Shown here: positions 114-24,266 of the stretch, piece after piece
Layout of the letters: each line of letters starts with the position of its first letter
How positions within the stretch are numbered: position 1 is the first letter of the stretch
Notes under the pieces: model-generated
Database searches by the model: none
The model's input: the letters and a program-made list of their open reading frames with translations, nothing else
Told to the model about the DNA's origin: nothing
Assembly: GCA_905178155.1 (NCBI GenBank)
Contig: CAJINV010000003.1
Location: forward strand, 8,929,292 to 8,993,291
Length of the DNA: 64,000 nucleotides
Origin: Amoebophrya sp. A120
Taxonomy: Eukaryota > Protista > Dinoflagellata
Direction: 5' to 3'
Translations under genes and position numbers: made by a program

Positions 114-452
114 TCTAGATGTCGATGATGCTAACTGACATTTGCGTTTCTTCTAATGCCTACTTCCAGGCGAAGCTGGCTTTGCTAGTACATATTAGAC
201 CCAGAATCAGTCAATGTAAACGGTAAAGAAGTAGCCACAGCAGCTTATCTATTCTAGAGCTCTATAACCTAGCCACCGTTGACTGGCGCAGGCGCATGTG
301 CTGCGTGTGCCTCCTGTAAATCATTGCCATTGCAGCTAGCACTTGGCGAAAATCTTTAGTTTTGCCGACACTCACACTCTCACTAATGCTGCAAGACATC
401 AAACCATTGTTCTTTTTCGGTATTTCGGGCGGGGAGAGTTTGCATCTTGATA

Positions 453-1317
453 AAGCCGGTGCATGGCCAACACGTCACCGCCGGACTTGCGAAATTGCAC
501 GTGCAAGGTCTGTATCAAATGCAAAAGTGTCTGGGTCTGGAAGAATGCGCGATTTGTCATGCAGCTTTTCCATGACCCACGAGGTCTGGAATGCAGGACC
601 TAGCATGACAGATTCTGTGCGATCTCTATCATGCCTATCCTGCACGAGAAACTCCCTCCCGACTTGGTCAAAACTGCACGACTTGTGGTAATCATGCAAC
701 ACAGATTTTTGCATGATTCAGATTTAGCATGACAAGTTGCAATCTTCCAGACCCAGACATTTTTGCATTTGATAGTCTGCACGTCCGGGTCCTCCATGGT
801 GGTGTAGATCCAAATGTTAGTATCGTAAGGAAAAATCCCCCCTCCCCATACTGAAAACGTATACTGTCGGAAATTTGTGATGCTGATTTGTGGTCGCAAA
901 TCGTGTCTGCCTTGCAAGAAAGCAAACCCAGAAGGCCCCCCGCATTATGCAGGCGGTTTGTGATCATGCTGTTGGGCCTACAGCATGGACTTTTGTCATG
1001 CCGAGCGCCTAGGCCAAAACCTGTCCACTCCGGCTTGATACGAGCCTGCAGTCCTCTATTGCAAGACAAGGCTTATTTGTGTACGCAAATCCAGCATCAG
1101 AAATTCCATTTTGATATGGGGAGGGGGGATTTTTCTCTTTGATAGTTAGTGGTGCGACCCATCATCCCTGCCGTCTCGCAGCACCACCCGCCCACGGCCG
1201 AGTACGGAATAGTGCGGAACTTGTAGTTCTTTCGAACGTTTCGCCAGTGGATGTACGCTGTACAGGGAATCCCGCCGAAACCCGACTTGTCGAAAGGGCT
1301 TTTGCGCGGCGGGCCAT
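453..1317 (-). CDS. Second copy (paralog or alternative haplotype) of the internal exons of the bacterial-type PH domain gene
   Basis: 1145-1317 matches 2600-2772; 453-512 and 775-820 match 2390-2476 and 2586-2604. The two exon differences I saw are synonymous (AAG/AAA, CTT/CTC). Intron homology extends to ~189. Truncated by the N gap. Confidence 0.75.
513..774. mobile_element. TIR introner (family B), 262 bp, TSD GTCTG
   Basis: 32-bp TIR tatcaaatgcaaaagtgtctgggtctggaaga / tcttccagacccagacatttttgcatttgata with 1 mismatch; gtctg at 508-512 and 775-779; empty site caaggtctgcacg present in the other copy near 2441-2453. Confidence 0.95.
821..1144. mobile_element. TIR introner, 324 bp, TSD GTTAG
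   Basis: TIR tatcgtaaggaaaaatcccccctccccata / tatggggagggggatttttctctttgata; gttag at 816-820 and 1145-1149; empty site aaatgttagtggtg at ~2596-2609. Confidence 0.93.
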
Positions 1318-1417
1318 NNNNNNNNNNNNNNNNNNNNNNNNNNNNNNNNNNNNNNNNNNNNNNNNNNNNNNNNNNNNNNNNNNNNNNNNNNNNNNNNNNN
1401 NNNNNNNNNNNNNNNNN
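1318..1417. other. Assembly gap (100 N)
   Basis: Run of N; true length unknown. Confidence 1.
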
Positions 1418-1543
1418 TACCGAGCCTCGCAGTATGATCCACTTGAATGCAAGGCAAGGAGCTTCATGTATTTGGAACCACACCTGCAGCAACACAATAA
1501 ACTAAACGTTTCTGAGAATGGCGGGGCACTTTTCCTTCTGATA

Positions 1544-3410
1544 GCTCTCCACGGCGAACAGCCGCACCCGGTTCCAGAGCAACGAAATGTAGCCAATGCT
1601 TCGACCCGTCAGGCCCCGCTTGTCGACGACGAGCACCCTTTTCGTAGTCAGCATCGTCGTGTCGCGGCCGGACTTGTAGGCCATCTGCACTTTCTCCTGC
1701 GGGTGCAGGATATGAGCCATGGCTTGCTGACACTTCTCGGGGCTCAGCTGCGACGCATCCCCCTTCAGGAAGTCGAACACCTTGCTCGCAGCGTATCAAA
1801 CAGAAACAAAGCACACTCATGAAAACCATAGCCGTCAAAGTAATCGAATAAAGTACACGCAGTACATTTTTGCAGTCGACAAGACGCGTTTCGGATGTAA
1901 AAAGAAAACTACGACCGCAATACCGTCAGAAAAAACGGCGCGTGTAGGGCATGCACTTCGCAAGATATTTATTGTGATGTGAGTGTGACGTCATGGCGTG
2001 GGTGTGCTTGCTTCGTGTGTGATACCGTGCCTTCCTCGGCGACCGGCATCACGTCCTCCCCGACTTCATCCACGGCTCCAAAGGGGTCAGATTTGGGCAG
2101 CGCGTATTGCGTCAGCAGCCTATTCTAAGAAAATATCCCCCCACCCCTTCCGATGGTGGTTTGACGTGGCCACAGGTCAGATCAATGTTAATAGGTACAT
2201 ACATATTAGACCCAGGATCAATCAATGTAAACGGTAAAGAAGTAGCCACAGCAGCTGCCTCCCGTAAATCATTGCCATTGCTAGCACTTGGCGAAAATCT
2301 TTAAGTTTTACCGGCACTCTCACTAATGCTGCAAGACATCAAACCATTGTTTTTCGGTATTTCGGGCGGGGAGAGTTTGCATCTTGATAGAGCCGGTGCA
2401 TGGCCAACACGTCACCGCCGGATTTGCGAAATTGCACGTGCAAGGTCTGCACGTCCGGGTCCTCCATGGTGGTGTATATCCACAGAAAAAAACCAATCCA
2501 CATCCATTTTTTGCATGACAAACACAGGATTTTATGTATGTTTTGCATGAGAAATTGGATGTGGATGGGTGTTTTTTCCTGGATAGTGTAGATCCAAATG
2601 TTAGTGGTGCGACCCATCATCCCTGCCGTCTCGCAGCACCACCCGCCCACGGCCGAGTACGGAATAGTGCGGAACTTGTAGTTCTTTCGAACGTTTCGCC
2701 AGTGGATGTACGCTGTACAGGGAATCCCGCCGAAACCCGACTTGTCGAAAGGGCTTTTGCGCGGCGGGCCATCTTTGAGCAGAATGCGCTTGTTCGTGAA
2801 CAACAGCTTGCGCTTATCCACTTTGAAGCGTAGTACCCATTTCCGACTACTTGTCATGCCAAAGCACGCGCAACGTGTACCATGGGGCTGCACTAGCGAT
2901 AGCGTGCCACAGTAAATTCATACTTTCTTTTCTTGTATAAATTATGCGCGTCCAAAACCAAAACCGAACTATATATTTCATCTCGCCTGTTTATTGTCCT
3001 GCTTCACATGAGCATGCAAAAGCTTTTGATGACTGCCTCAACAACAATAACAAATATTCCATATAAACGAGCAGGACTACGTCCTCTACGGCAAATGTGG
3101 TGAAGAGGAAATGGGTATGTTTTCGCTCAGGATAGCGCTGGAAAAACTTGTACGCTTGCAACACCGTTTCTCCCTCTTGCAAGGCTCCTGGGCACTTGCC
3201 GCGGAGACTCTCCTCGGCCGCTTTAGCGTTGCGGGCACGCATGTCTTCGTTCGTATTGCAGGCGCAGTCAAAGCACTTCTTCCCACAGCCCGGGTCTTGG
3301 TAGACCACTTCGTCCGTCATTTTCACAGTGTTCTGACGCTGCGGTGGAGCGGGGCGAGCTTCAGCTTCTCCCCCAGCCGCAGGAGCAGCCTTGGTTTGTT
3401 CGTCGGTCAT
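1544..3410 (-). CDS. Multi-exon protein with at least two tandem bacterial-type PH domains (bPH_1/YjqA-like); 3' end lost in the gap
   Basis: Exons 3410-3135, 2809-2586, 2471-2390, 2115-2025 and 1788-1544 join in frame: ...GETVLQAYKFFQRKLLFTNKRILLKD...IPYSAVGGWCCETAG...IWIY...DVLAMHRLLTQYAL...FDFLKGDASQLSPEK...EKVQMAYKSGRDTTMLTTKRVLVVDKRGLTGRSIGY. This fits the recalled bPH_1 pattern (AYKxxRDxxxFTxKRxxxxDKQGxTG...IPY...ETAG). Confidence 0.85.
1794..2024. mobile_element. TIR introner, degenerate TSD (CAGCG/CCGTG)
   Basis: TIR tatcaaacagaaacaaagcac / gtgcttgcttcgtgtgtgata; removal with 5 nt gives in-frame EEGTASKVFD. Confidence 0.8.
2121..2389. mobile_element. Aged TIR introner, TSD CAGCC/GAGCC, shared by both gene copies
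   Basis: tatt...gata ends with a weak IR (tccccc/ggggag); removal gives in-frame AMHRLLTQYAL; the homologous intron is at 189-452. Confidence 0.75.
2477..2585. mobile_element. TIR introner (family D), 109 bp, TSD GTGTA
   Basis: TIR tatccacagaaaaaaaccaatccacatcca / tggatgtggatgggtgttttttcctggata; gtgta at 2472-2476 and 2586-2590; empty site ggtggtgtagatcc at ~798-811. Confidence 0.95.
2815..3134. mobile_element. TIR introner (family E), 320 bp, TSD GCGCT
   Basis: tatcc...tacccatttcc / ggaaatgggta...ggata; gcgct at 2810-2814 and 3135-3139; removal gives AYKFFQRKLLFTNKR in frame. Confidence 0.9.
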
Positions 3411-5133: not shown

Positions 5134-8100
5134 CTACGAAAGGCTGTAACCTCCGCGAGAAGATACTTGTGACGAGCCTTCGTCGAGCAACTTCATCACA
5201 CGTCCTGAAGAGTCGTCCCCGTCAGCATCACAAAGGGGTGAACAAGGGGCCGGATTGAAGTTGGGCACGAGTGGTTGTATTTGTTTGTTCCTCTGAACCT
5301 CGGGCACTGATTGTCGCAATGTGGACGAAGTAGCACCAAACAACTGATCGCGTAGCGGTAGCGCCGGATCTGCCGCTCGGGTCGTCACCTCTACAGCGGA
5401 AGTTTTCGATTGCAGATGTCCTTGAAGGGAAGCAGCGTAGTGGTGGTTCCGCACCTTTTCAGGAGCGGGGCGGTTATCGATTGCACTGACGGAGAGCAAG
5501 TATCGTTCCTGGCGCCATCCTCCTTTGTCGGTGCCGTCGCTATCCTCATCTACCTCACTAGTCCCCAGTAAAGGAATTGCCTCAACAATCTCGGATGAAC
5601 TGGCGTTCTCTACATGTTTATGTTTTGTGGTTGGGCCTAGTTCCTTCTCCTTGCTGAGGATGAAAATCTTGTTGCTGGCGACTGCTTCTCCACCATGTTC
5701 TTCCTCTTCATCATCTACATCTTCATCGACATCCAGCATGTCGGACTCGATCTATCAGAATATAGAAATGTCCCGCGTCCAGCTCACTTACTAAACTCAA
5801 GAGGAACATTTAGATTGATTTCGATGGTGATGCATTGATCGATGGAACGCTTGCGCTACGTACAGGTTCTTGTACTATGACTGTCTGACAGAACCCTTTT
5901 TTTCATGAAAAAAGATGCGGAGCTGCTTGCTTGCACGTCCTAGAAACGGAGATGCAACGGGCGCTAGGGACAATTTTCTTTCTGGTAGAACCTCCGCACC
6001 GAGTGATAGCTCAGGTACCGGCGGCGACCGCGCAACATCTCTACCGCGACTGGCGCTTCTGGTCTCCGCAGCGTCGTCAGAAAAAAACCTATCGCGTTCG
6101 TGATCAACATGATCTTCATCTGGTGTTAGTACTTCGCCATTGGTTGTACAGGGACTGGAAGCTACCGTCATTCCGTCATGTTGCTGCTCGTCTTCTGATT
6201 GAGCTTCATCATTTTCATGTGATGCCACCAAGCGCGCGTTTCGATTTTCTTCACGGTGTCGTAGTTGTCGGTTGTCCGAGGAGAGAGCGTCGAGATCTCC
6301 ATCTGGCGACATCTGCATCCATTGCCTCTGCCTGGGAGTACTACTTCGGTCACGCTGTGTGGCTGCAGGGCGGACAGCGGAGGCGGAAGATGACGTGACT
6401 GCGAGAAAGCGATTGACTCTTTCTCGTGCTGTGAATTCCTTTGAAGTATTTGCTCTACGGGCTGAGTGCGTTAGATAGCTGGTAGAAGAAGTATGTACCG
6501 GACGATCTACATGGCCGAAAGACTCCTCGCGCTGACGTTTCATGCGCCGGCCGTGCAGAATTTCTCCTACCGAAGAATCCTCGCCAAGCTTCGTCGTCTC
6601 TTGTGCTCCTAGTCCTAGGAAAAATTGGACTTCATTACTGCTAGCACCAGCTGGCTCTCGTTCCCTGTTTGCGGCCTCGACTTGTTTGGCTGCAGCGTTC
6701 GGCTGGGTTTGTGTAGATTTCGCCAGTGCCAGAGCTCGCCCTTCGGGAGCTGCCAGACGCACTATCGCTTGCGCATCCGTGTCGAAATCAGGTTGAGCTT
6801 CTGCAGCCCTCTCACACTTTTGCTCACGGCCCGTCGATTCAACTGCTAGAGAAGATGACCTATGCATTGCAAAAGTGTCCTCTCGATAGTACTAATTGTA
6901 AAAATCATAAGTTTTGCACTAGCACTAGCACTACGAACTGGCTTAGAAAAATGACAAATGGAGACGTGACAAATGGACGTCCACGTCGATCTGTCTATGC
7001 ATGACTGCGATCACAACTGCTTGCGAGCGCGATAGCGATACTTTTGCAAAGGATACGACATATTTGGACGTGCGAAATGGAATCCTTTCCCGACGTTGGC
7101 AGCTTCATTCATTTTCATTCGCCGTCGCTGCATCGCTAACGATGATGAGGAGGAGCCACTCTGGGACCCGGGCCGCCCACCAGAGCAGGGAGTAGAATAG
7201 TAGAGACTCGTCGATGCTGGAGCGGCCCCGGCCGCCTTATGATGTTCAGCCGCTTGGCGATATTCTTCTGCGTCTTCTCGTTGGTCTTCTACTCCTTGAG
7301 TCGATGCTGGATCACGCGAACTCCTCACCTCGTTGAGGACCAGGTTGGTTTTTCCGGCAGGCGACTCAAACTTCGCGATGAGCTTGCCGATGACACCCGT
7401 TTGCTTTGCGGACGCGTTCTTGTGATCATACTGGCTAAGCTGCGGCTGCGAGGTAGCGACTTGCATATGCGTTGCGCCGGTTCGCAGTGGCGTTGAATCG
7501 GTTTCGGTAGCATTAGCTTTAGGCTCAGCCGCGGCAATCGGTAGTACATCTCGTCCATACGGTGCTGCATCAGTCACGGCCAAATTTTGGGACTGCTCGC
7601 TTGCCTTTGCTGCTACTTGTTCATTATCTCGTCGATGCAGCGACTCGCCGCGCCGTCGCTGTACAGGGCCTCCTGGCACCTGACGCCCGAGCCCAGCCGG
7701 CGTCTTCGTGATGTTGTTCTGCTCCATATCGAGAAACTCATCTTCGTGCAGGTTAGGTCGGGGAGAAACCACGACCGAGGTCATGTCCAACATGCTTGTT
7801 GTCGTGTCACTTGTCGATGTCAGATCAGGCTGGAGGAAGGTTTCCTGCAGTTCTTGTTGACCCACGACAACGAGTGGCGTAAATTGTGCGTCCTCAGATG
7901 ATGCAGATGCACCGCGCTGGAAGTTCTTGGTAATTCCACTTCGACTGATCGCCGCAGTGTTGATGCCTAGGCCGGCGGTTTCCATCCGCGTCTGTGCGAC
8001 ATCTTCTTGTTGCAGCTCCGCACTGCGCTGCAAGACAGACGCGAGGCAATGCTGGAGATTAATTAATCCCTTTGACTCGAAAACCGAATGCATTAACTCG

Positions 8101-11100
8101 ATGACGATATCGCGCCACTGCTCTCGCTCCGCACTGGTTCGTGGCCCGTACGTGAGGGCGGTTTGAAGGGCCGCGTACCCTCCGTCTGCTTCCAACAGCC
8201 AGCGAGGCCCGTCAGTGTAGGGGAAACTGGCTGATTGCCCGGTGGGACCTCCGGCGCCGCCCAATCTGACACCTGATTCAGATTTTCATTTTTATGGGAA
8301 AATAAAGAAAAAAAATCCAGGCCGTGTTCTGTGCGATGCCATTGCGAAGTTCAGGCTCCTCAGAAACAACGGAGTAGTTTTTATTTTCTTTTGATCTTGT
8401 GGATGTGCGAACGTCAGTTCATACATAAACCCAAAAAACTTCATCAAGCTGTACCTAAAGCCAAGTTTGTTTTTACCTCGAGACGTGGCTTCTTGGTCCG
8501 AATTTGTTTGCATGGCTAAAGATGAAGATCCTGCTGGTCGCGCTTCCATCTCTTTCTGGTCAACGCCTTGGAATTGGTCTTCATTTCTCTGCTTTAGCGG
8601 AGATGTGCTGTTGTAGATCGGACAAGAAAGGTTATCAATAATCATGAATGTTTGATATTTGATATTTGTTTTTTGCATTTTTTTATTATCAAGTCAGAAA
8701 AAATCTAAGTGTGTTTGCAAAGAAGTTCCTAGCTTCGTGGGGTAAGAAATTCTACACTAAAATCCACTTGCAGCCCCCGGTAATGTGGATGAAACCTTAG
8801 TCTCTGCACAGCCTGCCGTGGCCTTGATTTTCATTTTTGACAGCACGAAAAAATGAAAAATGCAACACTTGACGAAGCAAAAAAATGTACCTGCGTGTGA
8901 TGATTCCCATTTGGGAAATCTTTTGGCTTTGTTCACCGGGTGGCGCGCTTTCAGTTCGTCTCTTTTCCGCAATCTCGCGGCGCAGGTCTCGGCTTTTGTT
9001 TGCGAAGTACTGCGAGCGTGTCATGTGCTGCAGCGGTGTGGCACTAGCGTTTTTTATTCGGTGAAACCAGATCCCCGAGGCCGAGTCCGCAGCTATTGGA
9101 GCATTGCTCATCTTGTTTATCTTCGTTACTCCCGCTTCACGATGCACTTCTACTTCTTCTACTTTGAATGCGTCCTCGAGGTCTCCGGGTCCGGGGTTCG
9201 GAGAGGAGATCAAGGATGGAAATTGAACTTGGAATTGCTCCTCCTGTTGCGGCTTCTGCTGTTCTTGATAGAAAAAAAACGGCCGGGGCCCAGCGGAGCA
9301 ACACATATCCTCCCACCAGGCCGGAATCTGCAGGCCGCCCGCGTGGTCGCCGAGACGCCTCTTTTTCAGCATTTTTCTCACGTGGTGCTGCCGCGGAGCG
9401 GAAACAGTTGGCCGTCTTGCGATACGGTTGAATGCGGCAACAGTACCAGCAACGGAAGAGAACGACTCAGGGACGTGCATGCCAGCTTGAGAGGATGGTG
9501 AAATGGAGCCGACGTTGTTTTGATGCATTACTTTCCACTTCTGCAGACTCGGTCGCCTCATCGTCACCGGCACGCTGCGCTCCGGCTCTTTACTGAAGAA
9601 AATCTCCTCGCAGCTGTCACTACTACTATCAAAAGATTCTTGTTCTTTTTCGGGATAAAATAGCAACGGGCCACCTTCCAGCGAGCCGCCAGCATAGTCG
9701 GCGAAACCACTACTACTACTACCCTCTTCATCCGCTGCGTTTTCCTCCATTGCTTTCGCGTCGAAGTAGTCACGTAGCGGATTGAGCCGGTAGGTGACAA
9801 CCGCAAGTGGGAGGGCTTGGAACGGAAGTAGCGACGCCACCGCAACAGTCCTTTCGCTACAGGAGTAGACCCACGCATCCAAGAGGACTAATCGATGTAA
9901 AACCTGGTCGCCGTGGTCCAACGGTGACCTTGCTGCTTGTTGTCGACCACGGCTCGCCATCGCCATCTGGTGTGCGGCCAGGGCATCCACAAAGCCATAT
10001 GGCTTTCGAAGTAATTCTGGTATTATACTCGACGCGGATGAGGTTGAAGATTGGGGTGACCCAGGACCTGAAATTGTTGTACCATATGTTGCTGGTTGCG
10101 CAAACTGAAAGTCCCCACCACCTTCGACAGCCGATCCGTGAGATCGGTGTCGTTTACGCGGACGGTCGCGGTGAGGATGCAAATTGCGGTGATGAGAACT
10201 TGGATGATCCTCATGCGTCCGTCCCTTCGATGATGTGCCCGTTTCCCCGTTTGCATTTGCTTTTGCTGTGTGCTCGTTCCCGGGATAAAACAGCAGCGCG
10301 GAAGAGGCGGAGCACAAGTTCGATTTGTTTCTTAGGCTGGTGGTCCTTCCACCGAAAGAATTTGACTGCTGGCCGCGATGATTGTTCCTATTTGGTCGCG
10401 TTCGAAAGTTGGAAGGAGCTGAAAGCGTCATACTATTGTTTTGTCGTTTATTTGAGAATGCGGGCGGCCTGCCGGCGCGGGCGTCGACCACAGCAACACT
10501 TCTCCCATCTTCAGTAAAACCAGCGCATGGAGGTGAAGAATCCCGGGAAGACTGGGAGGAGGATTTTTGAGTAACGAGATCCAGCGCAGTGTCCGGATAA
10601 AAAAGGTGGCTCGGTGGATGCTCTGTCGTCGTGTCTGCAGCAGCGGTGGCCGAATGCGAGTGCTTGTGTCCAAAAGTAGACGCAGCTGAAGAGGAGCTCG
10701 GATCTCCAAGTGGTCCACCAAGCTCGTACGTCGAAGGACTACTGTTTTTCCGCTGCTCCTGCTGCCTCCAGAAATTGCGAGCCCCTCTTGCCGAAATTCC
10801 CTGCTTCGATGATCGGGTCTCTGCTTGTTCCACAACATGCGGGGACGAGTAGTGATTGGCTTCACCTTCGTAGGTGCCAATATTTCTGTCTCTTCGTGGC
10901 TGGTAAAAATTCGTTTTTGTGTCCCAAAGCTCCGACCCTTTCGCGCTCCGAACCTTTTGGGTTTCGTCGCGTAAATTGGCGTTGCTCTTTGTCTTTGCTC
11001 CCCCGCTTCGTCCCGCATTCTTGCTGGAGGTGGATGCGGCTGCACCAGAAGTGGGGGTTGGCACGTTTGCTTGTCTGAGAAAATCGCAGTCCGGCCCTGC

Positions 11101-14100
11101 TCCCCAAAACAGAAGTTGCCGCCGAGGCTCGCGGAGCGTTGTGCTCGTGGTCTCCACGTCAACCGACTGGAGATGCGTAAAGGCTTCAAGCACCCCGATA
11201 CCCTGCTCGAGGACATCCACGTCCAGCACCTCCAGTCTGTTTCCAAACCTCTGCTGCAATAAAGTCAAAACGCGAGCGTCTAGTACACCATTTACTTTAC
11301 CGCCGACCTGCCCGGTGCCACCTGGTGCATGCGCTGCGTCCGTTGAGTTTTCGTTTCCCGCTGTACCTGTAGCAGGATTCGCGTTTTCCTTTATTCCGTC
11401 CATACCTGCGTTCGCCTCGTCACTCTGTGTTGCAGCTGCCGCACCGGCTGCTGTAGTTCTTGTGCTGTAGTTCCGTTCCAGAATCTTGCACAGCCGGGCG
11501 CGCGCCTCCTGATCGCTTTTGCTGTGACGAAGGTACGGCTTCAGGTAGCGTGCGCTTCCTCTGAGCCGCTCGAAAGCAAGGGTGATGCAACGGAAGAACT
11601 CGTAGGGATTGAGTGTGCGCAGTTGAAATTCGCGACGAAGGTCTACCCCTTGCGCATAGGCGCTGAAAATACCACGGTCCAACATCGTCACCAGACGCGT
11701 CGTACTTGCTTCCAGTTGTCGCAGTCGCCCCATCTGCATTTGCTGGATCTTCTCCAAAATCCAGCAAAAAAGTATCACACTCGTATAAATTGCATACAAA
11801 GGCTGATCACAAAGTCGGTGAGAAGTGTGCAAAGAAGTTCAAGTTTGTCGATAAAGTGCTTGCCAAACTGGCGGAGAAGTTTGAGCTCCGGAGCAAAAAT
11901 GAATCTCACAAAGCGGCAATGCTTTGCCGGTACTGCAGACAAATCAAAAAGAGAAATGCGTCTTTGCGTGTAGTCAGTGAAGAATAACGCGTGAAGCCAT
12001 CAAAAGTCCGCGACTTTTGCCTTTGTCCTGAAGATTATCCAAGCTGTTACCAGCCGAAAACTTCAGTGACACTTCACGGAAACTAAAGCGCATGCTCCAA
12101 TACTAGAAGTTCACGCAGGCACTTCTCGCCAACCTCTGTCTGCACACTGCTCAACTTCAAGGACTCCACGACGAACTTGCAAAATAATTGGGTGACGTCC
12201 GCCCACAACTCGATCATCGTGGAGATCCGACGATCTGCGAGCTGCCCGTTTGGAAGTTGCAGTTGGTGAGGAGTTATTTGCTGAGTAGAGGTGCGCACCA
12301 GTCGAGAAGCCGGCAAAATGTCAATCCTTTGTACTAAATAGATACGAATGCAACACTTTTGCACAGGATATCGGAGTCCGTTAAGTGTCGTACGTGCTGC
12401 ACTTCCACCGCCTGCAAGCGCCCCAGAACGTCTTCCATTTCTGCGCGCAGAAAGTCTGCTTCCTTTCGGAGAAACTCGTTCTCGAAGGTCGCCTGGGTTT
12501 CATCATGTGCAGTTCTAGCTCTTGCTTGTTCAGTTCCCGAATCCTGGAAGTCGTGGCTACCTTGCAGTTGCAAGTTGAAATTCTCATATTCTTCAGCCCC
12601 TCGTGGTTGGACCATATCTTGTTGTCGCTCCTGGTCATGTTGCATTAGGACCGGCTTGTTCTTCAGGGCTTGGCGGACCAAGTTTTCGATGTCACTGAAC
12701 AGCTGCACAGAGCGCTGGGCGGTCTCACTCCGCGCTTGGTCCTGTCTGTCTTCACTGCCTTTGGTAGGCAAACTACACTGCGATGAATGTGAAGAAAAAG
12801 CACCAGCGTGGTTCAGGTTCTCTTGTGATGCTGTCCGAGTCACAGACACAGCATCCACTTGCTGTGCAGGAGCTCCACTTAGTTCTATTCCAACATTCTT
12901 CGACGTCCGTGCAGCCATTGAAGTTTCCGCCTTTGTGATAGTCGCAGAGAGAAAAGCTTGGACTTCGGACAATCCACGCAGAAGTTCCGCCGCCTGGTCA
13001 GGCGTGACAACAGAGTCCGTTCGCACTTCGTGACGGGTGGGCGATGAGGACGCATCAGCTGCAGTAAGAGCCTGTACTGCTGCAATCTCGTGGGTCATTT
13101 CCGACTCAGATGCAATTCTATCGATCTTCTCGACTTTTTGATTACTAGTTCCTGTGAAAGGAGCTGCAACCGCCGTTGCTGACGATGAAGGGGCGGCTTC
13201 TATGTCGCCGCCGCTTTCGTTCTGCTCTTCGACACGTCGGAGGAGTGCTGCTATCTGCTGCCAGAAACGCGGACCAACGCGCGGGGCATCTGGCCTCTCT
13301 GTCAGCACCCGCTGTGCGTTTTTCTGTAGATTGCGAAGGTACTCCCGGTCGCGGAGGGAAAGGACGTTTCGTGTGCGCTGCAGCGCGGGAGAAGTCTGTT
13401 GACTCTGGTCATTCATTTTCATCTGAACCAGCGAGTTCGAACCATTTGGAAGATTGATGTTCGCTGGTGCGTCGTTGCGCAGTCGATCTACTTGCCCGTC
13501 GGATTCGTACAAAATCTGTAGTTGCGCGGCGTCGTGTTGAAAGCGTTTGCGTTGATCCCCTTGCGCCTTCGTGACGCCCTTCTCGACGACGTTACCGAGG
13601 CGGCGGGTCAGCACGCGGACCAGACCATTGATCTTCTCGTCGTCAAGGGTCAGCTCCTTCTCGTGTCGCAGCAGCCGCAGGAAGGATGTGAGGAGCTTTG
13701 CGAATTCAGTGTCGACGTCTCCCCGCAAGCCACTCACGTTAACGGCGGGGAAATCCGGCAAAATCACTTTCGCAGCCGCTGAGTCTCTGCCGCTCGTCGT
13801 CCCAGCCGGCGGAAGACTTTGTTTACCTACACTCACAGGTGGCACTACGTCGGATTCTTCCGCATCAGAGAGCATAGACATGTGGAAATTTTGATCATCT
13901 GTGACGAGCACAGGAGACGAATAAGCCACGACCTTGCTTTTTCGCTGCTTCGGATCAACCGAGGGCGGCGCGGGAGGCGAGCTACTACTTCTGTTGCGCA
14001 GTGTGACGACAATCTTGGGAGATTTTGTTTTCGAGACGCTTTGGTCAAGATGATCATCTCGTCCAGCTTTTTCAGAGTTCCGGGCAATAACTGCAGATGA

Positions 14101-17100
14101 TGAGGAGGAGAATGTAGTGGCAATTCTTTCACCTCGTGTCGCAGGACGAGCGAGAGCGGGCGCCGCGGGCTCAAGTGCGGAATGCTCTTGCTGTGGCTGC
14201 TTCTCCACGTCTTGCCCACGTAGCACCTCCGGGTCTCCTTCGTTCGTTCTTCCTCCTGTCGCGGTGACAACAACATCCGGTTTGAGGTGATCCGCGGCGA
14301 TGCCTGCCTGTTCGAGCTTCCACACTGCAACCGAGAGACGCTTCCCCAAGTCTTCGCTCTGCTTCGCAATGGAGATGTGCGAGGCAATGGCATCGCAGTC
14401 CTGTTCATGCCTGCGCTCGAGGTTCTGGAGTTTCAGGAGCAAAAGGTCAGTTTTTCGCTTTTCAGCGTGATAGGAAAGCACAACGCTCTTCAGCGCACCG
14501 CCGTCCACAGCTATGTCTACCGCTTGATTTTCATTTTGTCCTTCTTGTGACTCCTGATCACGCGAGGGAGTGGGTCCTGGACCTGGTTCTTCAGCTTGCT
14601 TTGCCGTTTGTTCTTTTTGCGTCCGAAGCAGCCGCTCCGGGTCGTTCCAGTCTGCATGTGACAAGAGCGCTGTTCCATCTTGCACAACTGCCCTGGTCGT
14701 AGTACTTGCGCTTGTTGTATCTACTTGTCCGCGAGTCTGCACATTCACCGCCGTCGCCAGCATTTCCAGAAGGTGATCATTTTCTCGATCTAGCTGCTCA
14801 TTCTCGCGCTGCAGCTCGATCAATCGGTGTTCCATACCGATGCCAGACTGCCCCGTCCGCGGCGGCGCAATGGTCGCATGATCACCTCCTTCTTCATGAT
14901 CATGATCCAATTCCGCGATAATCTCGTGCTCCTCCGCATCACTAATATCAACCTTCTGCTCCACTCTTTTCGACGAACTGGAACTTCTACCATGAACTTG
15001 CGGCTCCTGTCGCAGCTCCTCGATGAGTGGTTCTCCGGTCGCGGCATCGTGAAACGTCGCGTTTTCGACAAAGGCGCTCGCAACCGAGACGGCCCGCTTT
15101 TTCCTGACATGTTCCACGTGTGTCGGCGAATGCAGCTTGTCATGGCCCGAGTACTGACCCCCGAAGCTTCCTCGCTGGTTGGAGTGCCAGACTGAAACCC
15201 TAGGCAAACCTACCCCGCTTGAATCAATACTTCTCGTGGCAATCGAAACGGGATGTTGGGCTGCTGCAGAAGATGGAGATCCACTCGATCTGCCACTCCC
15301 ACTCGCTGTTGCTTCTACAATTGTACGAGCGGACTGCGGCCTCCCTGATTTGGAAGGTGGGCTACCTGTGCGTGCGAAGATTCGGTTATCTTTGTTCCGG
15401 GGATCCGCCTGTTCTTCTTCTTCCTCACGGAGAACACGGGAACCTGGTGCAACGATCCGCTGAAGCAAAGTATCGTCTGGAACTTCGTTTTCCTTTGTAT
15501 TGTCGTAGAGAAAATATGAGGTGGGCAGCCCGGGGGCGTGGGCGTGGCCGCCGTCGCCACTTGCCGACCGCGGGAGAACTACTTCATCTCGTCTCTTGCC
15601 CTGCTTTGGTCGGGCGGGCCGATCATGCGTTTTCGAAGCATCCACTTTTCCCCCTACTACAGTCGTTGCAATGAACCCCGGCACTCCAACGTGCGGGACG
15701 TACCTCTGGTCGATCTGTTTCGCGCGGCACTGGAGCACTTTCTTTTCTTCGCCGCGGGATGCGGAGTGATAGAGTGGACTATTTGTCTTTTGGAGCGTCA
15801 ACGTGGCACCAAGCAGCGAGTTGTGCACGGTCTTCGTGCCTTCCTCCTGATCATGCGAAAAGGACTGCTCCCGTGCAGCCGGAAGTTGTTCCGAAGATGA
15901 CGAAGAAGAAGAACTAGCTCTGCGGGCAATAGCGTTAGCGCCGTCCTCCACCCCCTCCGCTAACAAGCATGAAGACGCTCCAGTATCTGCAAGGGCTGAG
16001 CCTTCGCCTTTCCGTTTTTCTCCTCCTCCCGCCGTTGTTGGGTTCAGGGTTCCATGCTGGTGCGAGGCGGGCGCGGGGTGGGAATCGGCTACAACACCGC
16101 TGCGACCGCTTTCGTTCTTTCCCTTTCCGGCAGTTCCGTACTCATTTTGTGTATTTTCGACCAGAATTTCAACATCGAGCCCGGGAGTTCCTCGAACGAG
16201 CCATTTGTCCGTCTTCTCGTCGCGCTCTACTACGAAGTCCAGATCCCCGGACCCCGTGACCCCAGCTTGGTAGAGGCGCACGCCGGGCGTTTTCAGCGCA
16301 AGGACCTGGTAATACCGCTCTAGGGCTTTTGACACCATCTCAGCCAATAGCATGTCTCGAGCCGTGTGCAATTGGGCAATTCGCTGGACGGTCGCCGACG
16401 TGTCTTGCATAATATGCTGCACTGGCCCCTGTGTGTCCAACACAACATCTTTGGAAGTAGCGGTGTCCACATTTAGCGGATCATCTTCCGACGCTCGACT
16501 CTGATGAAAATAGGGGTATGTCTTAAGGTGACTGAACTTCATTTGTATCCTGAGTGAAAACGTCCCGCCCATCCCATAGCCGAGATGGCAAATCAATGCG
16601 CTAGAGAACTCTAGAAGCTTTGTGGACGCCGCGTGACAAATTTGGGGGAGACGCACGCGCCAGCGTAGTGAGTCGTGTTTGGCTCTTCAAGTAGGTACGT
16701 CACAAATAGTTGACCACTTTATCCGTATGCGTATCCGGATTCCAGCATGACAATCTCAAGACCACACCACTAAAATAAATATACAAGACCACACCACTAG
16801 AAAATGCCTCTCGTTCTCATGTCGCTCTCGCTGCGCATGAGAAACGGAAAGTAAGATAAAGATTTTACATTAACACCTTAGGCATAGATGCAGTAGCATC
16901 TATCTCTATGGACTTGCAACATGACAAGTACGGAGTGAGCAGCACGTTGTTTTCTCCATGGATAATCTGATCCTCCAGAAGCGACCTCCGGTGAACCAGG
17001 TCGGCTCTGGTATAATCAGCCTGCTTTTTCGTGTGCAGTCTCGAAATATCGTCAGTGATGGCCTGTAGCTCCGTATTGTTTTCCGACATCCATCGCATCA

Positions 17101-18022
17101 CCCAGTCTCGCACTTCTGCATCCTCAATGCGAGCCGCTTTTCTCTCCACCAATTCGCGTACCTCCGGGGCGAACGCTGCTCGCAACAAATCGCCTGTACT
17201 CGGTGAGGAAGCGGTAATGGTATTTTGATTTTCCTGCTCGTCGGCATCTCGTCCCCTCCCTCCGAAAGCACGAAAAGCGGGCTGCGAAGCTGGTCGTGCC
17301 GCGCCTTGCGCACGAACAGCAGATGACCACACACGTGGTTCCGACTCCTCGTGAGCTCGCTGCTGCTGCAACAGGGGACTTAGGGGAAGTATGGAGTCCA
17401 GCTTCTTCTGTATGTTGCGAAAGCTCAAAGTGTGCGGATTGTTTTTGTTGTGCTGCCGCTTCAACTCGCGCGCTGCTTGCAACGGTGTCCAAATGTCATC
17501 TACTTTTTCGCCTTCCTCTCGTCTGGCAAGTAATGGCGCCGGTTGCGTCTGCCCGTGAGTCGTCCTACGAACTTCTTGTGATGCTGAACCCAACTTGGAC
17601 ATCAAAGGATGCACTGCAAAAGAAGACGAGGAAGATGTGGACGCCAGAAACTCGCTTTTCCTCAGTTGCGCGGGCGGCTGGTACCGCTTCTTCAAGCGAT
17701 TCACTCGCACTTGCAGATCGTCCGTGCTGGGGTCCCGAGCAGAAGAAGAGCGCCCTCCTGGTCCTGGAGGTGCTCTACTAAAACTTGATGACGATGAAGA
17801 GGAATAGCGATTTTGAATATGGCGCTGGCGCGCATGTTCTAATGAAGGACGTTTGCCAGCACGATGATCGTGTGCGAATTTATCATGCGAGCTGTGCTGC
17901 AAGGTGTCGAAGTTGGACGGAGCACTGGAAGACGGCAGACCTCCAGATGGAAACTTTACAACTTTTGATGCTACGCCGAGTCGAGAACGTAGTTCCGAAT
18001 TTCGCGATGACGGCGCCTCCAC
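5134..18022 (-). CDS. Very large multi-exon, low-complexity/coiled-coil hypothetical protein (could be more than one gene)
   Basis: Consecutive long minus-strand ORFs of 385, 1440, 1011, 417, 330 and 201 aa separated by short gaps; the 385- and 1440-aa ORFs join in frame across 16546-16964 (LLEDQMKFSHL). No recognisable domain. Confidence 0.7.
16546..16964. mobile_element. TIR introner (family E), TSD ATTTG/ATCTG
   Basis: Left end tatcctgagtgaaaacgt is identical to 46080-46097; right end acgttgttttctccatggata; in-frame join. Confidence 0.8.
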
Positions 18023-20031
18023 TCGAGCCCGCTCTTCCGACTGCAGCTGAAGGAAAAAAATTTTTGACGAATCAAAATTATTGATTCGAGTACATCCACG
18101 TTCTTCGCTATGTGCATGTACAGCTGTACCAGATCAACGTGCATCATGTTTCATGTTCTTGAGGACAAGAACGGGCTTGTATCATACAGATCCAAAAACA
18201 TGCTACAAAAAATAGGTAGAATAGGACGACAAAGTAAAAAGAAGCTAAGGCAGCGGCATATACGTGCTGCGAAGTGTCGGCGTTGCGGCGTCGGAATTCC
18301 TCGAAGCTCTTCAGGAGGCTCTTGGAGGTGCCTCCCTCGCCGGCGTGCGCCGACTGATTAGAAGAACGGCCTACTGGTGCAAACTCATTCGTTCTTCGCG
18401 TTTTACTGAGTCCTGCTAGCACCAAGCGGCCCGGAGATGGAGGGGATGCCAATTGGGCGTCCTGAAATGGCCTTGTTTCGTCTATCGCCATGTTCGTCGA
18501 ACTGGTAGTGCCAGCACTGTAACTCACGTACTAAGTAATATTGCGGTGACTACGGTGTCGCTTCCGAGGACGATGACGACGATATTCTGCTTTATTCGGC
18601 ACCGGGACCGGCAACAATAACAATACAAATACGACCAAGACAAAGCCATAAACTAAGACCACGAACAGTCGCGACCATAACAGCGACCATAGCAACTGCT
18701 TCAGCTGCAGACACTCCTGTTCATATGTCTTCCTTCTATTCGGCGAATCGCGAAAACGACGAGTGATAGACCATGGGCATCTCATCTTTTGCCGTCATCG
18801 ATCTTGTACGATACACGATTCGCCATCCATCGTCGACCTTATACGATTCACGATCACGACGAGTGTGACAACGAGTAAACAATGAAAGGCTTGAATCAGG
18901 AGCGACTACAACGACAAACGACATTTGGAACGGGCTTTCTAGTTAATGTTAAAAGGTTACACTCCACAACTATTTTGCGCATAGTGCTTCTGCTTCGTGG
19001 AATCTCATTGCGCTGAGAATTGTGCGATAGTTCGAGTAGACCCACACTTGCTTTAAAGCCGGAGGGTTGGTGCGAATAGTACTCATCCGTGGCAAGGAAT
19101 ATTCTTGAGTGCACCTAGACAAAGAACAACACGTTTATCACAGCAGGAGACCTTCATCTGCTCTTGATCAACACTGGACTTGACCACGACCTGATTCTGC
19201 GAAGCCTCAACCAAGAATACTGAAAGTACAGAACGAAGCAGTTTAGCCATTTTTATTTATGTAGTTGGTGACATGTACTTAACGAATAAAACAATACTGC
19301 AACTATGCGGTCAGAAACAAGCCAAATGGTCCGCAACAAGTAAGGAGCGTAGGATACAATATTTATTTATCGAGCGGCCATTCAATCAACATTTTCATAC
19401 AGTCAAAAGGAAAAACTAAAACTACACTTAAGTCCGTGCTAGAGCTCTCTCACGATGACGCGGCGGTGTCGCCCGCGCTGAACCGATTGGCACATAGCTG
19501 ACTACTCAGATCATACGACCCAGGGAGACGCAAAGCAAGGTATGACATGATTCATCGACCGTCCATGACTACCGTACAGACTCTTAATGCTGGTAGCTAG
19601 ACAAGAAGACGACGTCAAGCACAGCGAGTTTGAGAAGACTTGAAGATAATGTACTTAAGCATCAGCTAGATAGTGGATGTCATAAAAAATGTGAGTAAAC
19701 TCATAACTCTGTCAAGGCTGGTTGGTCAGCTTCAAAACTGTCGCGCTAAACTCGACACTGCAGCTCGATGGGTTTTCCTGGAAATCTTGTGTGCGTGTGT
19801 AAAGTGGTCGTCTGCTCCTCTACCTCTAGTACCATATCTACACAGTGGCATATCGCCGGGCCAGGAGCACATTAGTAGATGGGTTACGGCGCTCACACAG
19901 GTTCACTACCGCTACCGGCAGCAGCAGCATAGAGGATAGAGCTAGACCTAGAGCATTCTTTCCACAGAAGAGAAATAAAGCGCTAGTAGTAACTTAAACT
20001 TATCGTCGATAATTCTCATTCACTACTTGTG

Positions 20032-23000
20032 TCACGCTCTTCCTCTACCGCCTCGCAGGTGCGGTCTGCGCGGCAAATTCTTGTCGAAAACCATGTTTTT
20101 CTCAAGATTTTGTGGGTCCGGCGCCGCAAATTCCTCGAGAGTTTCTGCGTCAACAACTTCTGCCGTGGTTCTAGCTGGTGCCAACGCCGACCGGGCTGCT
20201 CTACCGCGCGCGGGGGACAAATTAGTGACTGATGTGGATGAAGATGCGGTTTGATGAGCTTCAATCAGGGTGGACGAGGAACCCACCGCGGGCCTAGTAC
20301 TCGCGCTGTTCGCTGAGACCTCGATCTGCTTCGAGGATTCGTCACATCGGGATGTGTCTTCTCTTTTGTTCAGTGAGGGTGAAGAAGCGCTCGCCGCCAC
20401 CCCGACTCCTACTTGCTCACTGAGTTGCGCGAGAGATGGAGGAGGAAACTTTGTAGTTACTTTGCTGTTTCGTGTTGCAATGGGTGACGCTGCGCTAGTT
20501 GAAGTGCTAGAAGACCTTCCCCCGGCCGCGGGCTGCCGATTTACAAGCTGCTGATGAAGATTCTCGTCGGCTTTCACGCGTTCAGACGTTGCATAGAAGT
20601 TTGTGCCGAGCCGATTCAAGGGGTTGGAATCTTTTGCCGGAGAGCGTCGCTGGTCCAGCGCCGCCTTGGACTTGTTGCCAGCAGCAGTTGATGACACTCG
20701 CCTGGGCTCCACGTTAGAGGTAGCTATGACCAACGTCGGCGCTTCGGCAGCCGGGATTCCTTTCGTGTTATTAGTATTACTAGCAACGTCGAGAGAAGCC
20801 TGGAGATCCTTCGCAGCCGCTGCATGAAGATGCCCCAGGCGTGCGCGTGGGGAGGAGCTTCTCCCCGATCTAACCTTCCGTTGGTGGTCGTCGCGAAACC
20901 GCAACCCAATCGCTTCCGAGTTTAGTGCAAGATCATCTGCTTTGAACGCAGTGGGAACTACTCCCCGCTTGCTGGTGTCGATGTCGTGGTCGCCATCTTT
21001 TGTGGTCCCTTCTAGGTCGCATCCGGACGCCGCAGAAATATTGCGTCGCTCCCCAACCCCAACGGCAGACCACTGAGATGATGCAGAGTTTGCCCTTGCG
21101 GCTTCAACATCCCCGCGTCCTCCGCCAGTTTCGAGGACTACGGCAGCTTTATTCACAGTTGTGCCAGAAGATGTCGTGTCGTTATGGGGCACGCCCCGCT
21201 TTGATGAAACGGCTACCGTGCCGCTGTCGCGAATTTTCTTTGAGTGACGCCACGCGGTGGCTGTACTGGGGGTCTCGGCACCTCCTTGGCGGCCCCCGTC
21301 CGGTAAAACGATGTCCAATCCAAGTTGACCTCCTGAGGAAGCAGAAGGAAGGTCGGTCAACGTACTGCTTAAAAGTTTCTTACTGGAGCTTCTGGACGGG
21401 CTCTTGTAAAGGCTCCCCTTCATCATGGCGGTGGACTTGCTGCGGTCACTGTCCCCCGACACCAGATGTCGACCCGTAAAGGTCGCCGCACCGGAAGTGA
21501 AAATGGAACTCGACCCGTTGTCTCGCTTGTTGCGGTCCCGCATTTGCTGCTGCAGAGTCTCTACTCGCGCAAGCAACAGAGCTTGTTCCGTCTCGAGGCT
21601 GACCATGACGCGATCGCGCTCCTCTTCGGCTTGGGCCTTCAGATTCAGAACGTTGTCTCGCTCCTGAGTCAGCTCCTTCACAGCCGTCTGATGCCGCAAA
21701 ACGGCGTCCCGGTGCTTCGCCCGCTCCTCCGCGCATTCCTTTTCCAGCTTCGCACGCTCTTGCTCGTGTTCGCGCATCACCTGCTGCAGCATGTGCTTTA
21801 CAGTATCAATGGTGTTCTGTTGGATGGTCGCCTGCTCCTGGTATGTCGCGGCTTGTTGTGCCCAGGAGGCCTCTTGCTGTCGCAGTGCGTCTTCCGCTCC
21901 TTGCCGAGCCGATTCTAGTGAGGTGACTGTGCGGGCTTGCTCAGCAAGCAGTTCCTCGAGCTGCAGCCGCTTGCGATCTTCCGCGGTGCCGGTGGCGAGG
22001 GTCTGCACTCCCACACTTTTCCACGTTCGCAGCTGCTGCTCCCCCGTTGGAACTTCTTGTGAGCCCCCGCCCAACCCGGTTGTTCCGACAAGAGTGCTGC
22101 CCATCATTTTTATTTCATCTTTCTCGTCGGAAGGAATCGGTTCTAGGCGGCTCTGCTGACGCTGATGTTTCTGCTTTTTGATAAAGAGCATCCGGTCGAT
22201 CGGACTCCAATTGCTTGTGGGGTCGCGGCGATGGTGCGGCAATGCCTTCTGCATGTGCGCAGTCTTAATCTTTTGCTGTTCTACCTTTTGACGCTGCGTC
22301 AACACATGTTCATCTAGTGAAGCTGAGTTGCTGCTGCTGGAGGCGGACGTAAGACCTCCATCAACTGCGGCGACGGTCGTGCTTTCGCTGGCCTCTACGT
22401 CCTCCTCGACGTCGTCAACAGTATCGGCGCCGCCGCTTCCTGAGACAATTGCTGCGGCGCCAGCTGCATGCTCGGCCGATGAAGAAGATTCCACTCCCAA
22501 CCCATCCTTTATAAAGGACGAGTTGTGCAGTGTGCTGGTCATGGTTTCGCTTAGCATCGCGTCCGTAATCTCCTCCATCGTATTCTGAAAGACGCGGTCA
22601 GAATTTTGAATCAGCTTATCAAGTCGACGGATGGTGCGTTTTGACTTTTCGGTAAACTCCTTTGGAAAATTTTTCCGATAGGTGTCAAGGAATTTCTGCT
22701 TCCGGTTAGCACCTCCAGCTCCTGCGGTACTTTGCTCTTCGTGTTGGACGTGGTGCCCATTCTTGTTCCCTTGAATGTAGTGATTAGTGCCACTCGCTGC
22801 ACTGCCGCGACGAGAACCGGTGGCTGCAGATTCTTTATGTAACCCCTGAATCTGTTTGTCGTTCTCCAGCGGAAGCGGCCCGAGTTCTTCTTGGCTCGCG
22901 GAAGAACTATAGGAACCTCCAAGACTCGACCCCACCGCTGCCAAGTCCGGAGTTACTTGATGTTTGCCCGGAATCGATTTCGTCTTCTCGTTCTTACGCA

Positions 23001-24266
23001 CACCGGCAGTCGTGGCCGAAGTTGCATCCTCATCGAGCAGCGACCCGGGGTGCATGTCGTTTGCCATTTCCAGTACCAGGGCCGTGGAGGACGGTGCAAA
23101 GGTGCCTGAGGCCATTTGAAACCCAGCTCCATGTCCTCCTGAAGCGGCAAGGTGTTTATTACGGCACTGCTCGTCGCCTTCAACACGGCATCTACTTTCA
23201 CCCTCCTCCAGCAGTAAATCCTCCGGATCATGCGGCAACGTATCGTTCTTGATGTCGCCATCTTGCCACTGATCACCCTGCGTCGTTCTTGTTCGTTCCG
23301 CCTCAGCTTGGTTGAGCACCAGCGACGCAGTGGTCTCGGCCAGCGGGTCCACTTTTGGCATGTCCACAACGAGATTCGCGAGCCGAACGGGTGGCTTCTG
23401 CTTAGTGGTCTTGTTCCGCGTTGTCAAATGGGAATTGTTACGAAGTCCAGCAGTCGCCAACGAGGACCCAGTGCCTGCAGCACTAGTACTAGACGACAAA
23501 GCGAAGCCGGCGCCACCTGCTCCTGGTCCTGCCATCAACTTTCCTCCGCCGCTGCTGGCCTCGAAAGAAGCAAAACCCCCACCAATCTTCCCGAAAAGGT
23601 GCTGCGGAGGTATGCAGCCATGAGCACTGCCGTCCACTGTGCTGGAATTCGCGTGCAGGTGATTGTAGCTGGGCCCCGAGCTGTGGTACAGCTCCCCAGC
23701 AACAGCCGGAGAGCAACCAGCCGCGGCCAGAGCGGGCTGGATTGGGGAACTAGGTGTCGTGGGCACTATACCTTCTCCGTGAATTCCGGGAAAAATGGGC
23801 GACGTGTTCTCCCCTGCACGGTGCTGTTTATGCAATATCAATAATCTTTTCTATACCTATTCGTGCTCCACCAGAGTGTTTTTTTTTATCATCTTTGGTT
23901 GGCTAGTTATTTTTTTGCGTAGGTATATATATTGATACTCACTTTCACATTCACTGTGAGTGCCAGTGAGTACCAGCCAAGCACAAACGTAATGGCGAAA
24001 ATACTGAACCACAACAAACAGCAAACTACTAAAAACGTTGGTCTATAGTATACGTTGACAATCGACGGCGACCCTCGAGTTACGGAAATCGGCGACTCTG
24101 GAATGTATCGGTGCAGTTCTCCCGCTCGTACCAAGGGCGTGCTTCGGTCGCGTGTCGGCGATTCGACTTCATGCAAGGTCTCCAGCTGCTGGCGCCATGT
24201 CACGAGCCCCTTCTTTTTGTTGTTGTTCATCATGGGGACTTGTGGCTGGTGCTGTTCGATCAACAT
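20032..24266 (-). CDS. Two-exon membrane-anchored coiled-coil hypothetical protein (~1370 aa)
   Basis: Exon 1 has a hydrophobic segment (FLVVCCLLWFSIFAITFVLGWYSLAL); exon 2 is the 1269-aa ORF with a central coiled coil; in-frame join across 23836-23937. Confidence 0.75.
23836..23937. mobile_element. Aged TIR introner with decayed TSD
   Basis: Perfect 8-bp IR tatcaata/tattgata; on the gene strand the flanking pentamers are GTGAG and TTGCA; removal of element plus 5 nt restores frame. Confidence 0.7.

Follow-up and report, generated by a model that had tools for sequence, protein, structure and literature searches.

In the current analysis we have examined a stretch of 64,000 nucleotides from Amoebophrya sp. 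A120 (the window; all positions are numbered along it), which encodes on the minus strand two nearly identical copies of a gene with repeated bacterial-type PH domains, referred to here as the left and the right copy. Three inserts of the TAT…ATA introner type, E1, E2 and E3, distinguish the copies. E1 and E2 are found only in the left copy and E3 only in the right one. The three inserts are probably independent transposon insertions, that is, recent intron gains that followed the duplication of the gene, and each is predicted to have served as an intron at once.

The two gene copies

The right copy (1545-3410, minus strand) has the exons 3135-3410, 2586-2809, 2391-2471, 2025-2116 and 1545-1788, as given by RNA contig 17 of sequencing run X8. 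Of eleven listed runs, seven (X1, X3, X5, X6, X8, X9 and X10) were compared with the window. Runs X5, X6 and X8 have been treated as RNA, since their contigs skip introns that are kept in the DNA run X1. The joined exons provide 305 codons free of stops, from the ATG at 3410 to 1545. The Pfam family bPH_1 has been assigned to 1547-1789 (E=2e-14), and a further region, 2591-2899, gives a value below the cutoff (E=1e-3); a homolog search with the latter region returned no match. The gene product aligns along P0001, a protein of 820 amino acids with several bPH repeats. The closer of the two protein matches is P0002 of Amoebophrya sp. A120 (97% over 36 amino acids), and since P0002 differs in one of 37 residues from the stretch 1544-1654 it represents another copy of this gene. 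A small intron hidden in 2700-2772 was considered and rejected, as the RNA contig reads through 2586-2809.

The visible part of the left copy (454-1317, minus strand) comprises the predicted exons 1146-1317, 776-816 (41 nt) and 454-508, the 88 encoded amino acids of which are identical to those of the right copy. The exons differ at one of 268 nucleotides, a synonymous change (C at 486, T at 2423). None of 205 nonsynonymous sites differs, whereas the intron differs at six of 190 sites (Fisher p=0.012). This is the pattern to be expected of a left copy that still makes protein, and it lends indirect support to that possibility.

An older intron is shared by the copies (189-453 in the left copy, minus strand, against 2200-2390 in the right), with 6 substitutions in 190 aligned nucleotides and 5 indels, one of 62-63 bp. 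The copies no longer align left of 189/2200, where the rest of this intron is replaced in the left copy by a repeat (1-190) at about 12x depth (324-370 over 1-176). This repeat is possibly a fourth, nested insertion with its own filled and empty site, cut by the edge of the window. A DNA contig covering 2096-2256 at 2.95x suggests that the left copy probably resumes beyond it.

Introner elements and their empty sites

E1 (513-774, 262 bp) has arms of 36 nt that are 94% complementary and lies between two copies of GTCTG (508-512 and 775-779), while the empty site in the right copy has this 5-mer once (2445-2449). E2 (821-1144, 324 bp; arms of 30 nt, 87% complementary) is flanked by GTTAG at 816-820 and 1145-1149, with the single 5-mer at 2600-2604 of the right copy. 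The corresponding features of E3 (2477-2585, 109 bp; arms of 34 nt, 82% complementary) are GTGTA at 2472-2476 and 2586-2590, and one such 5-mer at the empty position 802-806 of the left copy. All three insertion sites fall within 46 nt (775-820 in the left copy). The flanking 5-mers are identical at five of five positions for each of the three elements, the chance of which is arithmetically about 1e-3 per site. TAT-N7-AAA is present at both termini of all three. Folding is far stronger than that of shuffled sequences, with z = -12.4 for E1, -7.8 for E2 and -5.2 for E3, and no shuffle was equally good.

The original prediction, made from the letters of the window, had placed the three inserts at exactly these coordinates, within about 50 bp of coding sequence and with one 5-mer at each empty site, all of which agrees with the present measurements. 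Its proposal that the direct repeats are true target-site duplications is supported by the perfect 5-bp flanks together with the single 5-mers. Three unrelated element families, as it had also suggested, are likewise supported, since E1, E2 and E3 show no mutual blastn similarity at E<1e-3. The claim that these families had been mobile very recently holds when 'very recently' is taken to mean the time after a duplication whose copies have diverged by about 3% in the intron. The clustering of the three sites taken by itself is weak evidence (P=0.06 in 268 nt and 0.02 in 458 nt, calculated post hoc).

DNA depth has been taken from the contigs of X1, which may be the source sample of the window, and contig depth is no copy number; contig evidence throughout refers to the matches listed, with 15,648 and 103 pieces unlisted in the two comparisons. 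All three families are repeated elsewhere: their DNA depth, when summed, greatly exceeds that of single-copy sequence, and many different flanks occur. A relative of E1 is located within the window at 45026-45288 (72% identity) and has its own perfect 5-bp flanks. E1 itself departs by about 1.5% from its family majority and has family-rare letters at 4 positions. E3 has a near-identical sibling elsewhere (3 differences in 119 nt), and at its right end 7 DNA contigs among the matches listed depart into other flanks at 97% likeness. The interior of E2 (972-1073, 102 nt) is found without difference in a DNA contig at 3.7x single-copy depth; the E2 letter at 910 is found in no X1 contig.

In the raw RNA run X9 about 200 reads from one other locus include part of an E1-family element (matching 687-774), and one copy of this family is thus kept in an abundant transcript. 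The window also contains a TAT…ATA element of 1455 bp (49300-50754) with perfect 5-bp flanks. Within it are a short motif, present many times, and a long inverted repeat at 49974-50367. It is a candidate larger or nested element.

Removal of the introns from RNA

The 2892-nt RNA contig of X8 skips 1789-2024, 2117-2390, 2472-2585 and 2810-3134, and in a neighbouring gene 5749-5988 and 6857-7056 are missing from the RNA contigs of X5 and X6. Each of these six listed joints corresponds to an inverted-repeat element plus 5 nt, five of them being TAT…ATA and one TAC…ATA in the sense direction. E3 is removed as 114 nt (2472-2585), exactly the element and one 5-mer, and no GT/GC-AG alternative that keeps the frame is available within 30 nt of either end. 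None of the six seamless cuts of E1, E2 or E3 gives GT-AG or GC-AG, and for E1 and E2 every in-frame GT/GC-AG option alters the protein. The corresponding minus-strand introns of the left copy are predicted at 509-775 for E1 and 817-1145 for E2. E2 with one 5-mer amounts to 329 nt, retention of which would shift the frame. Retention of the 114 nt of E3, which contain no in-frame stop, would add 38 residues.

Further TAT…ATA elements are located at 2815-3134, with perfect 5-bp flanks (RNA skips 2810-3134), at 1794-2024, an older one with flanks agreeing at 3 of 5 positions (RNA skips 1789-2024), and at 2121-2389. The last of these is the element of the shared older intron and has decayed arms and flanks agreeing at 4 of 5; RNA skips 2117-2390. 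In the neighbouring gene, an element reading TAC…ATA in sense (5753-5987) has flanks that agree at 2 of 5 positions and is skipped as 5749-5988, and another is found at 6861-7055.

The position of the cut is written here as a+b, where a is the number of nucleotides removed before the element (TAT) and b the number removed after it (ATA). The cut 1+4 is the only one compatible with all six joints. The joint at 5749 (ends CT..TC) forces it, as the flanks there allow no sliding, and the joint at 1789 allows either 0+5 or 1+4. A cut of 0+5, in which the intron would end on the AC or AG closing the downstream 5-mer, was rejected because it fails at three of the six joints. The joint at 2117 fits cuts from 1+4 to 5+0. 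Every RNA-compatible cut there removes 2390, so the difference between 453 and 2390 is intronic. Two synonymous exon changes had been counted in the original prediction; the one at 486/2423 stands and the one at 453/2390 is lost from the count, while the single older intron that it described as shared is real.

Several observations weigh against a fixed cut without GT and AG. One joint of the six forces 1+4, and those at 2472 and 2810 are uninformative. With a cut of 4+1 the joint at 2117 reads GC-AG and the joint at 6857, which also fits 1+4, reads GT-AG. E1 moreover has an in-frame GT-AG alternative that would drop two codons.

Copy number of the locus

The single-copy reference is a 34-kb X1 contig right of 5462 with a depth of 26.7. 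Left of 5462, 7 X1 contigs among those listed have depths of 57-79, the contrast at the boundary being 67.9 against 26.7. The boundary of the multi-copy segment (5462-5491) falls inside the neighbouring gene, with single-copy DNA to its right. A contig specific to the left copy (216-404, without difference) has a depth of 28.3, or 1.06 single-copy units. Right-type DNA has 2.1-2.3 units, DNA shared by both types 2.8-3.0 and one long mixed contig 2.5. The RNA depth of the shared part of the neighbouring gene relative to its unique part is 3.3x in X5 and 3.2x in X6, these two runs being from one sample. About three paralogous copies, one of the left type and two of the right type, are the simplest reading. 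Where paralogs and co-assembled haplotypes had earlier been named side by side, the contig depth per copy leans towards paralogs. The suggestion that the left copy could trace to a contaminating organism is in practice excluded, with 267 of 268 exon letters identical and the families abundant in the same DNA run.

The diagnostic junctions are represented in part among the DNA contigs. The right junction of E1 is joined to the exon in a contig whose loose end falls at 2445. The contig 2315-2474 passes over the empty E1 site with no differences and extends 25 letters beyond it, under the 31-letter rule for bridging. For the empty E2 site a bridging contig is present (2558-2918). The state of the empty E3 site in DNA is taken from the window sequence itself.

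The copies are separated by an assembly gap (1318-1417), in which the 100 N are a placeholder for a gap of unknown size. The X8 RNA contig of the right copy extends 1148 letters past 1545, the first 12 of which are absent from the window. Either the gap hides more than 1 kb of the transcript of the right copy or that sequence lies elsewhere. A further intron begins at 1540-1544, with a GATA end at 1540-1543 next to the loose RNA end (1545), and continues into the gap. The main DNA contig over 3162-5491 has 14 letters and 4 gap letters unlike the window, 4 of which are shared by the spliced RNA contig. The right copy of the window may be a minority version, or the main DNA contig may be a mosaic of copies. 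RNA contigs of X5, X6 and X8 continue past the boundary at 5491 into different 5' sequence, such that copies of the neighbouring gene with different front halves exist and both forms are transcribed.

Gain or loss of the introns

Presence and absence of introners is on record for Micromonas and fungi. At the present locus it is very unlikely that the two copies represent alleles, or the haplotypes of strains, that were assembled together across the gap. It is true that near-identical exons flank an unsized gap and that ploidy and clonality are unstated in the main text of PMC7789003, but alleles predict half and one-fold depth, whereas left-only DNA has 28.3 against 26.7 and shared DNA about three-fold. 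It is hardly credible that the left configuration is in part an assembly chimera of repeat and exon. That configuration does adjoin the gap, three of its five diagnostic junctions (the left one of E1 and both of E2), as well as the empty E3 site, are absent among the DNA contigs listed, and the absence of the E2 letter 910 from X1 points the same way. The left-specific stretch 216-404 and the right junction of E1 are nevertheless present in DNA contigs, and a misjoin would not yield two perfect 5-bp duplications plus a clean empty site. A more substantial alternative is loss, whereby one or more of the empty sites would have held an ancestral element that was either excised, with repair between the 5-mers, or replaced from complementary DNA (cDNA). 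Cut-and-paste excision with microhomology repair is an established process and counts in its favour. Since removal is seamless, a precise loss is also expected to leave an empty site with one 5-mer, just like a site that was never hit, and the departure of E1 from its family majority is similar to the divergence between the copies. Loss is all the same improbable. It requires a gain plus a loss at each site where one event of insertion suffices, and to produce the interleaved pattern inside 46 nt (filled-empty-filled against empty-filled-empty) cDNA conversion would have to act in three separate and very short tracts. Near-identical siblings of E3 and E2 also favour gain, and the positions of non-canonical introns are described as strain-specific (PMC7789003).

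We therefore consider gain after duplication the probable history of the three sites, its direction being drawn from parsimony and the interleaved pattern, since one 5-mer would likewise remain after precise splicing or excision. Against this reading stand the missing junctions mentioned above, the caveat on depth together with the possible identity of X1 with the source sample, and the family-rare letters of E1, given which this element is not brand-new. Gene conversion from an active copy could mimic the low nonsynonymous divergence. The spliced RNA contig carries the right allele at 2423, and RNA runs X3, X9 and X10 give no cover on the left-copy exons, which is not evidence of silence. As an outgroup, a metagenome scan reduced 592 pattern matches to 1 locus, 31% identical, which does not reach the sites. 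Finally, three gains in 268 nt exceed the genome-wide density (P from 0.04 down to 7e-5, depending on the assumption), the genome average being 1.42 introns per kb (PMC7789003). At the intron density of this gene itself P ranges from 0.57 to 0.003, with the share of young introns assumed. The excess hints at an older duplication or at gene conversion. Nucleosome-linker targeting, as described for other introners (PMC9860276), could by analogy cause an insertion hotspot here.

Proposed mechanism of insertion and removal

These observations suggest a sequence of events in which a segment of at least 4 kb, judging from depth, would have been duplicated to about three copies. Non-autonomous TAT…ATA DNA transposons would then have inserted by a 5-nt staggered cut, E1 and E2 into the left type and E3 into the right type. 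The enzyme was likely an integrase-like DDE transposase, none of which is seen here; Pfam families could be named in three of the 15 frames scanned in the window, and none is a transposase. RNA would lose each element with 5 nt such that the pre-insertion sequence is restored, as has been found for E3 and five other introns and is predicted for E1 and E2. Cutting would take place 1 nt ahead of TAT and 4 nt beyond ATA. As 1+4 equals the length of the duplication, the target needs neither GT nor AG.

The cutter may well be a relaxed U2 spliceosome, which we regard as somewhat favoured because the T and A of the element sit at donor positions +2 and +3. Of 16 hand-picked window elements, all read in the minus sense, 14 begin the intron with C or G, followed by T and A as in ordinary donors. 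A rival for this last step, under which the gains would be equally real, is a non-spliceosomal nuclease that measures structure and, with a ligase, cuts out the hairpin, as suspected for Euglena. We hold this to be the less likely reading. Consistent with it are the ends CT..TC at the forced joint, the strong hairpins of E1, E2 and E3, the report that U1 was not found in A120 (PMC7789003) and the Euglena introns with a spacer-defined code, the machinery of which is described as unknown (PMC12501133). Older introns of the locus with decayed arms still splice, however, and nearly all spliceosome proteins are described as present in A120 (PMC7789003). The preference for C or G as first base also argues against the nuclease, though a target preference could cause the same.

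We tentatively propose that A120 may have matched rulers, with a 5-bp duplication made by the transposase and a splicing cut set 1 nt ahead of the hairpin and 4 nt beyond it. If so, nearly every new TAT…ATA element, whichever way it is oriented, would serve as a perfect intron from day one, without GT or AG. The locus, possibly an insertion hotspot, would display three such events within 46 bp, and one single nucleotide polymorphism (SNP) suffices to phase the paralogs.

Comparison with known systems

Introners of the MITE type (miniature inverted-repeat transposable elements) are reportedly known from Micromonas pusilla and Aureococcus anophagefferens (Huff 2016 is said to be the source). Like E1 to E3, the introners of these two species are non-autonomous DNA transposons that turn into introns and have both duplications and inverted repeats (PMC7789003, PMC9860276); theirs, unlike ours, have canonical splice motifs.

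By their sequence features E1 to E3 are the published introner elements of Amoebophrya sp. A120 (Farhat 2021, PMC7789003). These are defined there by a TAT-N7-AAA start and an inverted repeat (8-20 nt or longer) that connects the two ends of the intron, with direct repeats of 3-5 nt at the exon boundaries. The inverted repeat and the motif are present in all three of our elements, direct repeats are perfect in all three, the families are repeated in the genome, and non-canonical removal from RNA is found for E3. The TAT-N7-AAA ends, hairpin, direct repeats, lack of GT-AG, multiplicity of families and, judged by the short P0002 match together with the motif, the organism are the same, whereas here the empty sites fix a 5-bp duplication and the RNA fits one cut. 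In that account (PMC7789003) the splice sites are variable relative to the hairpin, with inverted repeats 1-5 nt from them, gain and loss are not distinguishable and a general mobilisation by transposase in A120 is ruled out. Its supplement figures S19-S25 give repeat positions that may bear on the cut. The main text of PMC7789003 makes no mention of empty sites or polymorphism, and in the literature, judged by titles and abstract openings, we found no report of empty sites or of a fixed cut in Amoebophrya.

The A120 introner families of Gozashti et al. 2025 (PMC12130899) are also inverted-repeat introners. Their family 38 has an integrase-like open reading frame, which would suit short staggered cuts; E1 to E3, of 109-324 bp, are too short for a transposase and are likened to those families by description. 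The curation described in PMC12130899 removes introners arising from gene duplications. The nonconventional introns of euglenids share paired ends at fixed spacers, sliding direct repeats and a suspected MITE origin (PMC12501133; PMC11282704). Theirs are CAG…CTG with spacers of 3 and 5-6 nt, in contrast to TAT…ATA with 1 and 4 here (PMC12501133), and instead of the euglenid signature N3-CDG…CHG-N5-6 the ends here read N-TAT…ATA-N4. TA..TA termini also occur in IS3EU/GingerRoot elements, the transposases of which are related to integrases (PMC10045372). Their duplications are usually of 6 bp, as against 5 bp in all three cases here (PMC10045372), and E1 to E3 have for this reason not been assigned to them.

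The system itself is known; the direct filled/empty evidence is new, and the locus provides confirmation and a test bed, not a new kind of element. The published account had left three questions open, namely if the repeats represent target-site duplications, if the introns arise by gain or disappear by loss, and where the cut lies. Filled and empty copies of one exon address the first two questions at single-base resolution, and a fixed cut is indicated by neighbouring introns in which the duplications have decayed. As a natural experiment the locus offers one exon in two intron layouts, a diagnostic SNP (486 C/2423 T) and an exon of 41 nt between two young hairpin introns.

Other features of the window

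A frame at 59121-60599 has an endonuclease/exonuclease/phosphatase domain (Pfam E=4e-9); one homolog search with 59124-60599 gave no match. Three very long uninterrupted frames of 1013, 1450 and 1272 amino acids, with no Pfam match, are located at 8797-23850 beside the intron-dense gene. The density of elements along the window is uneven. Of the listed frames of at least 250 amino acids, all but two are encoded by the minus strand, which agrees with the clusters of genes in one direction that have been described for Amoebophrya.

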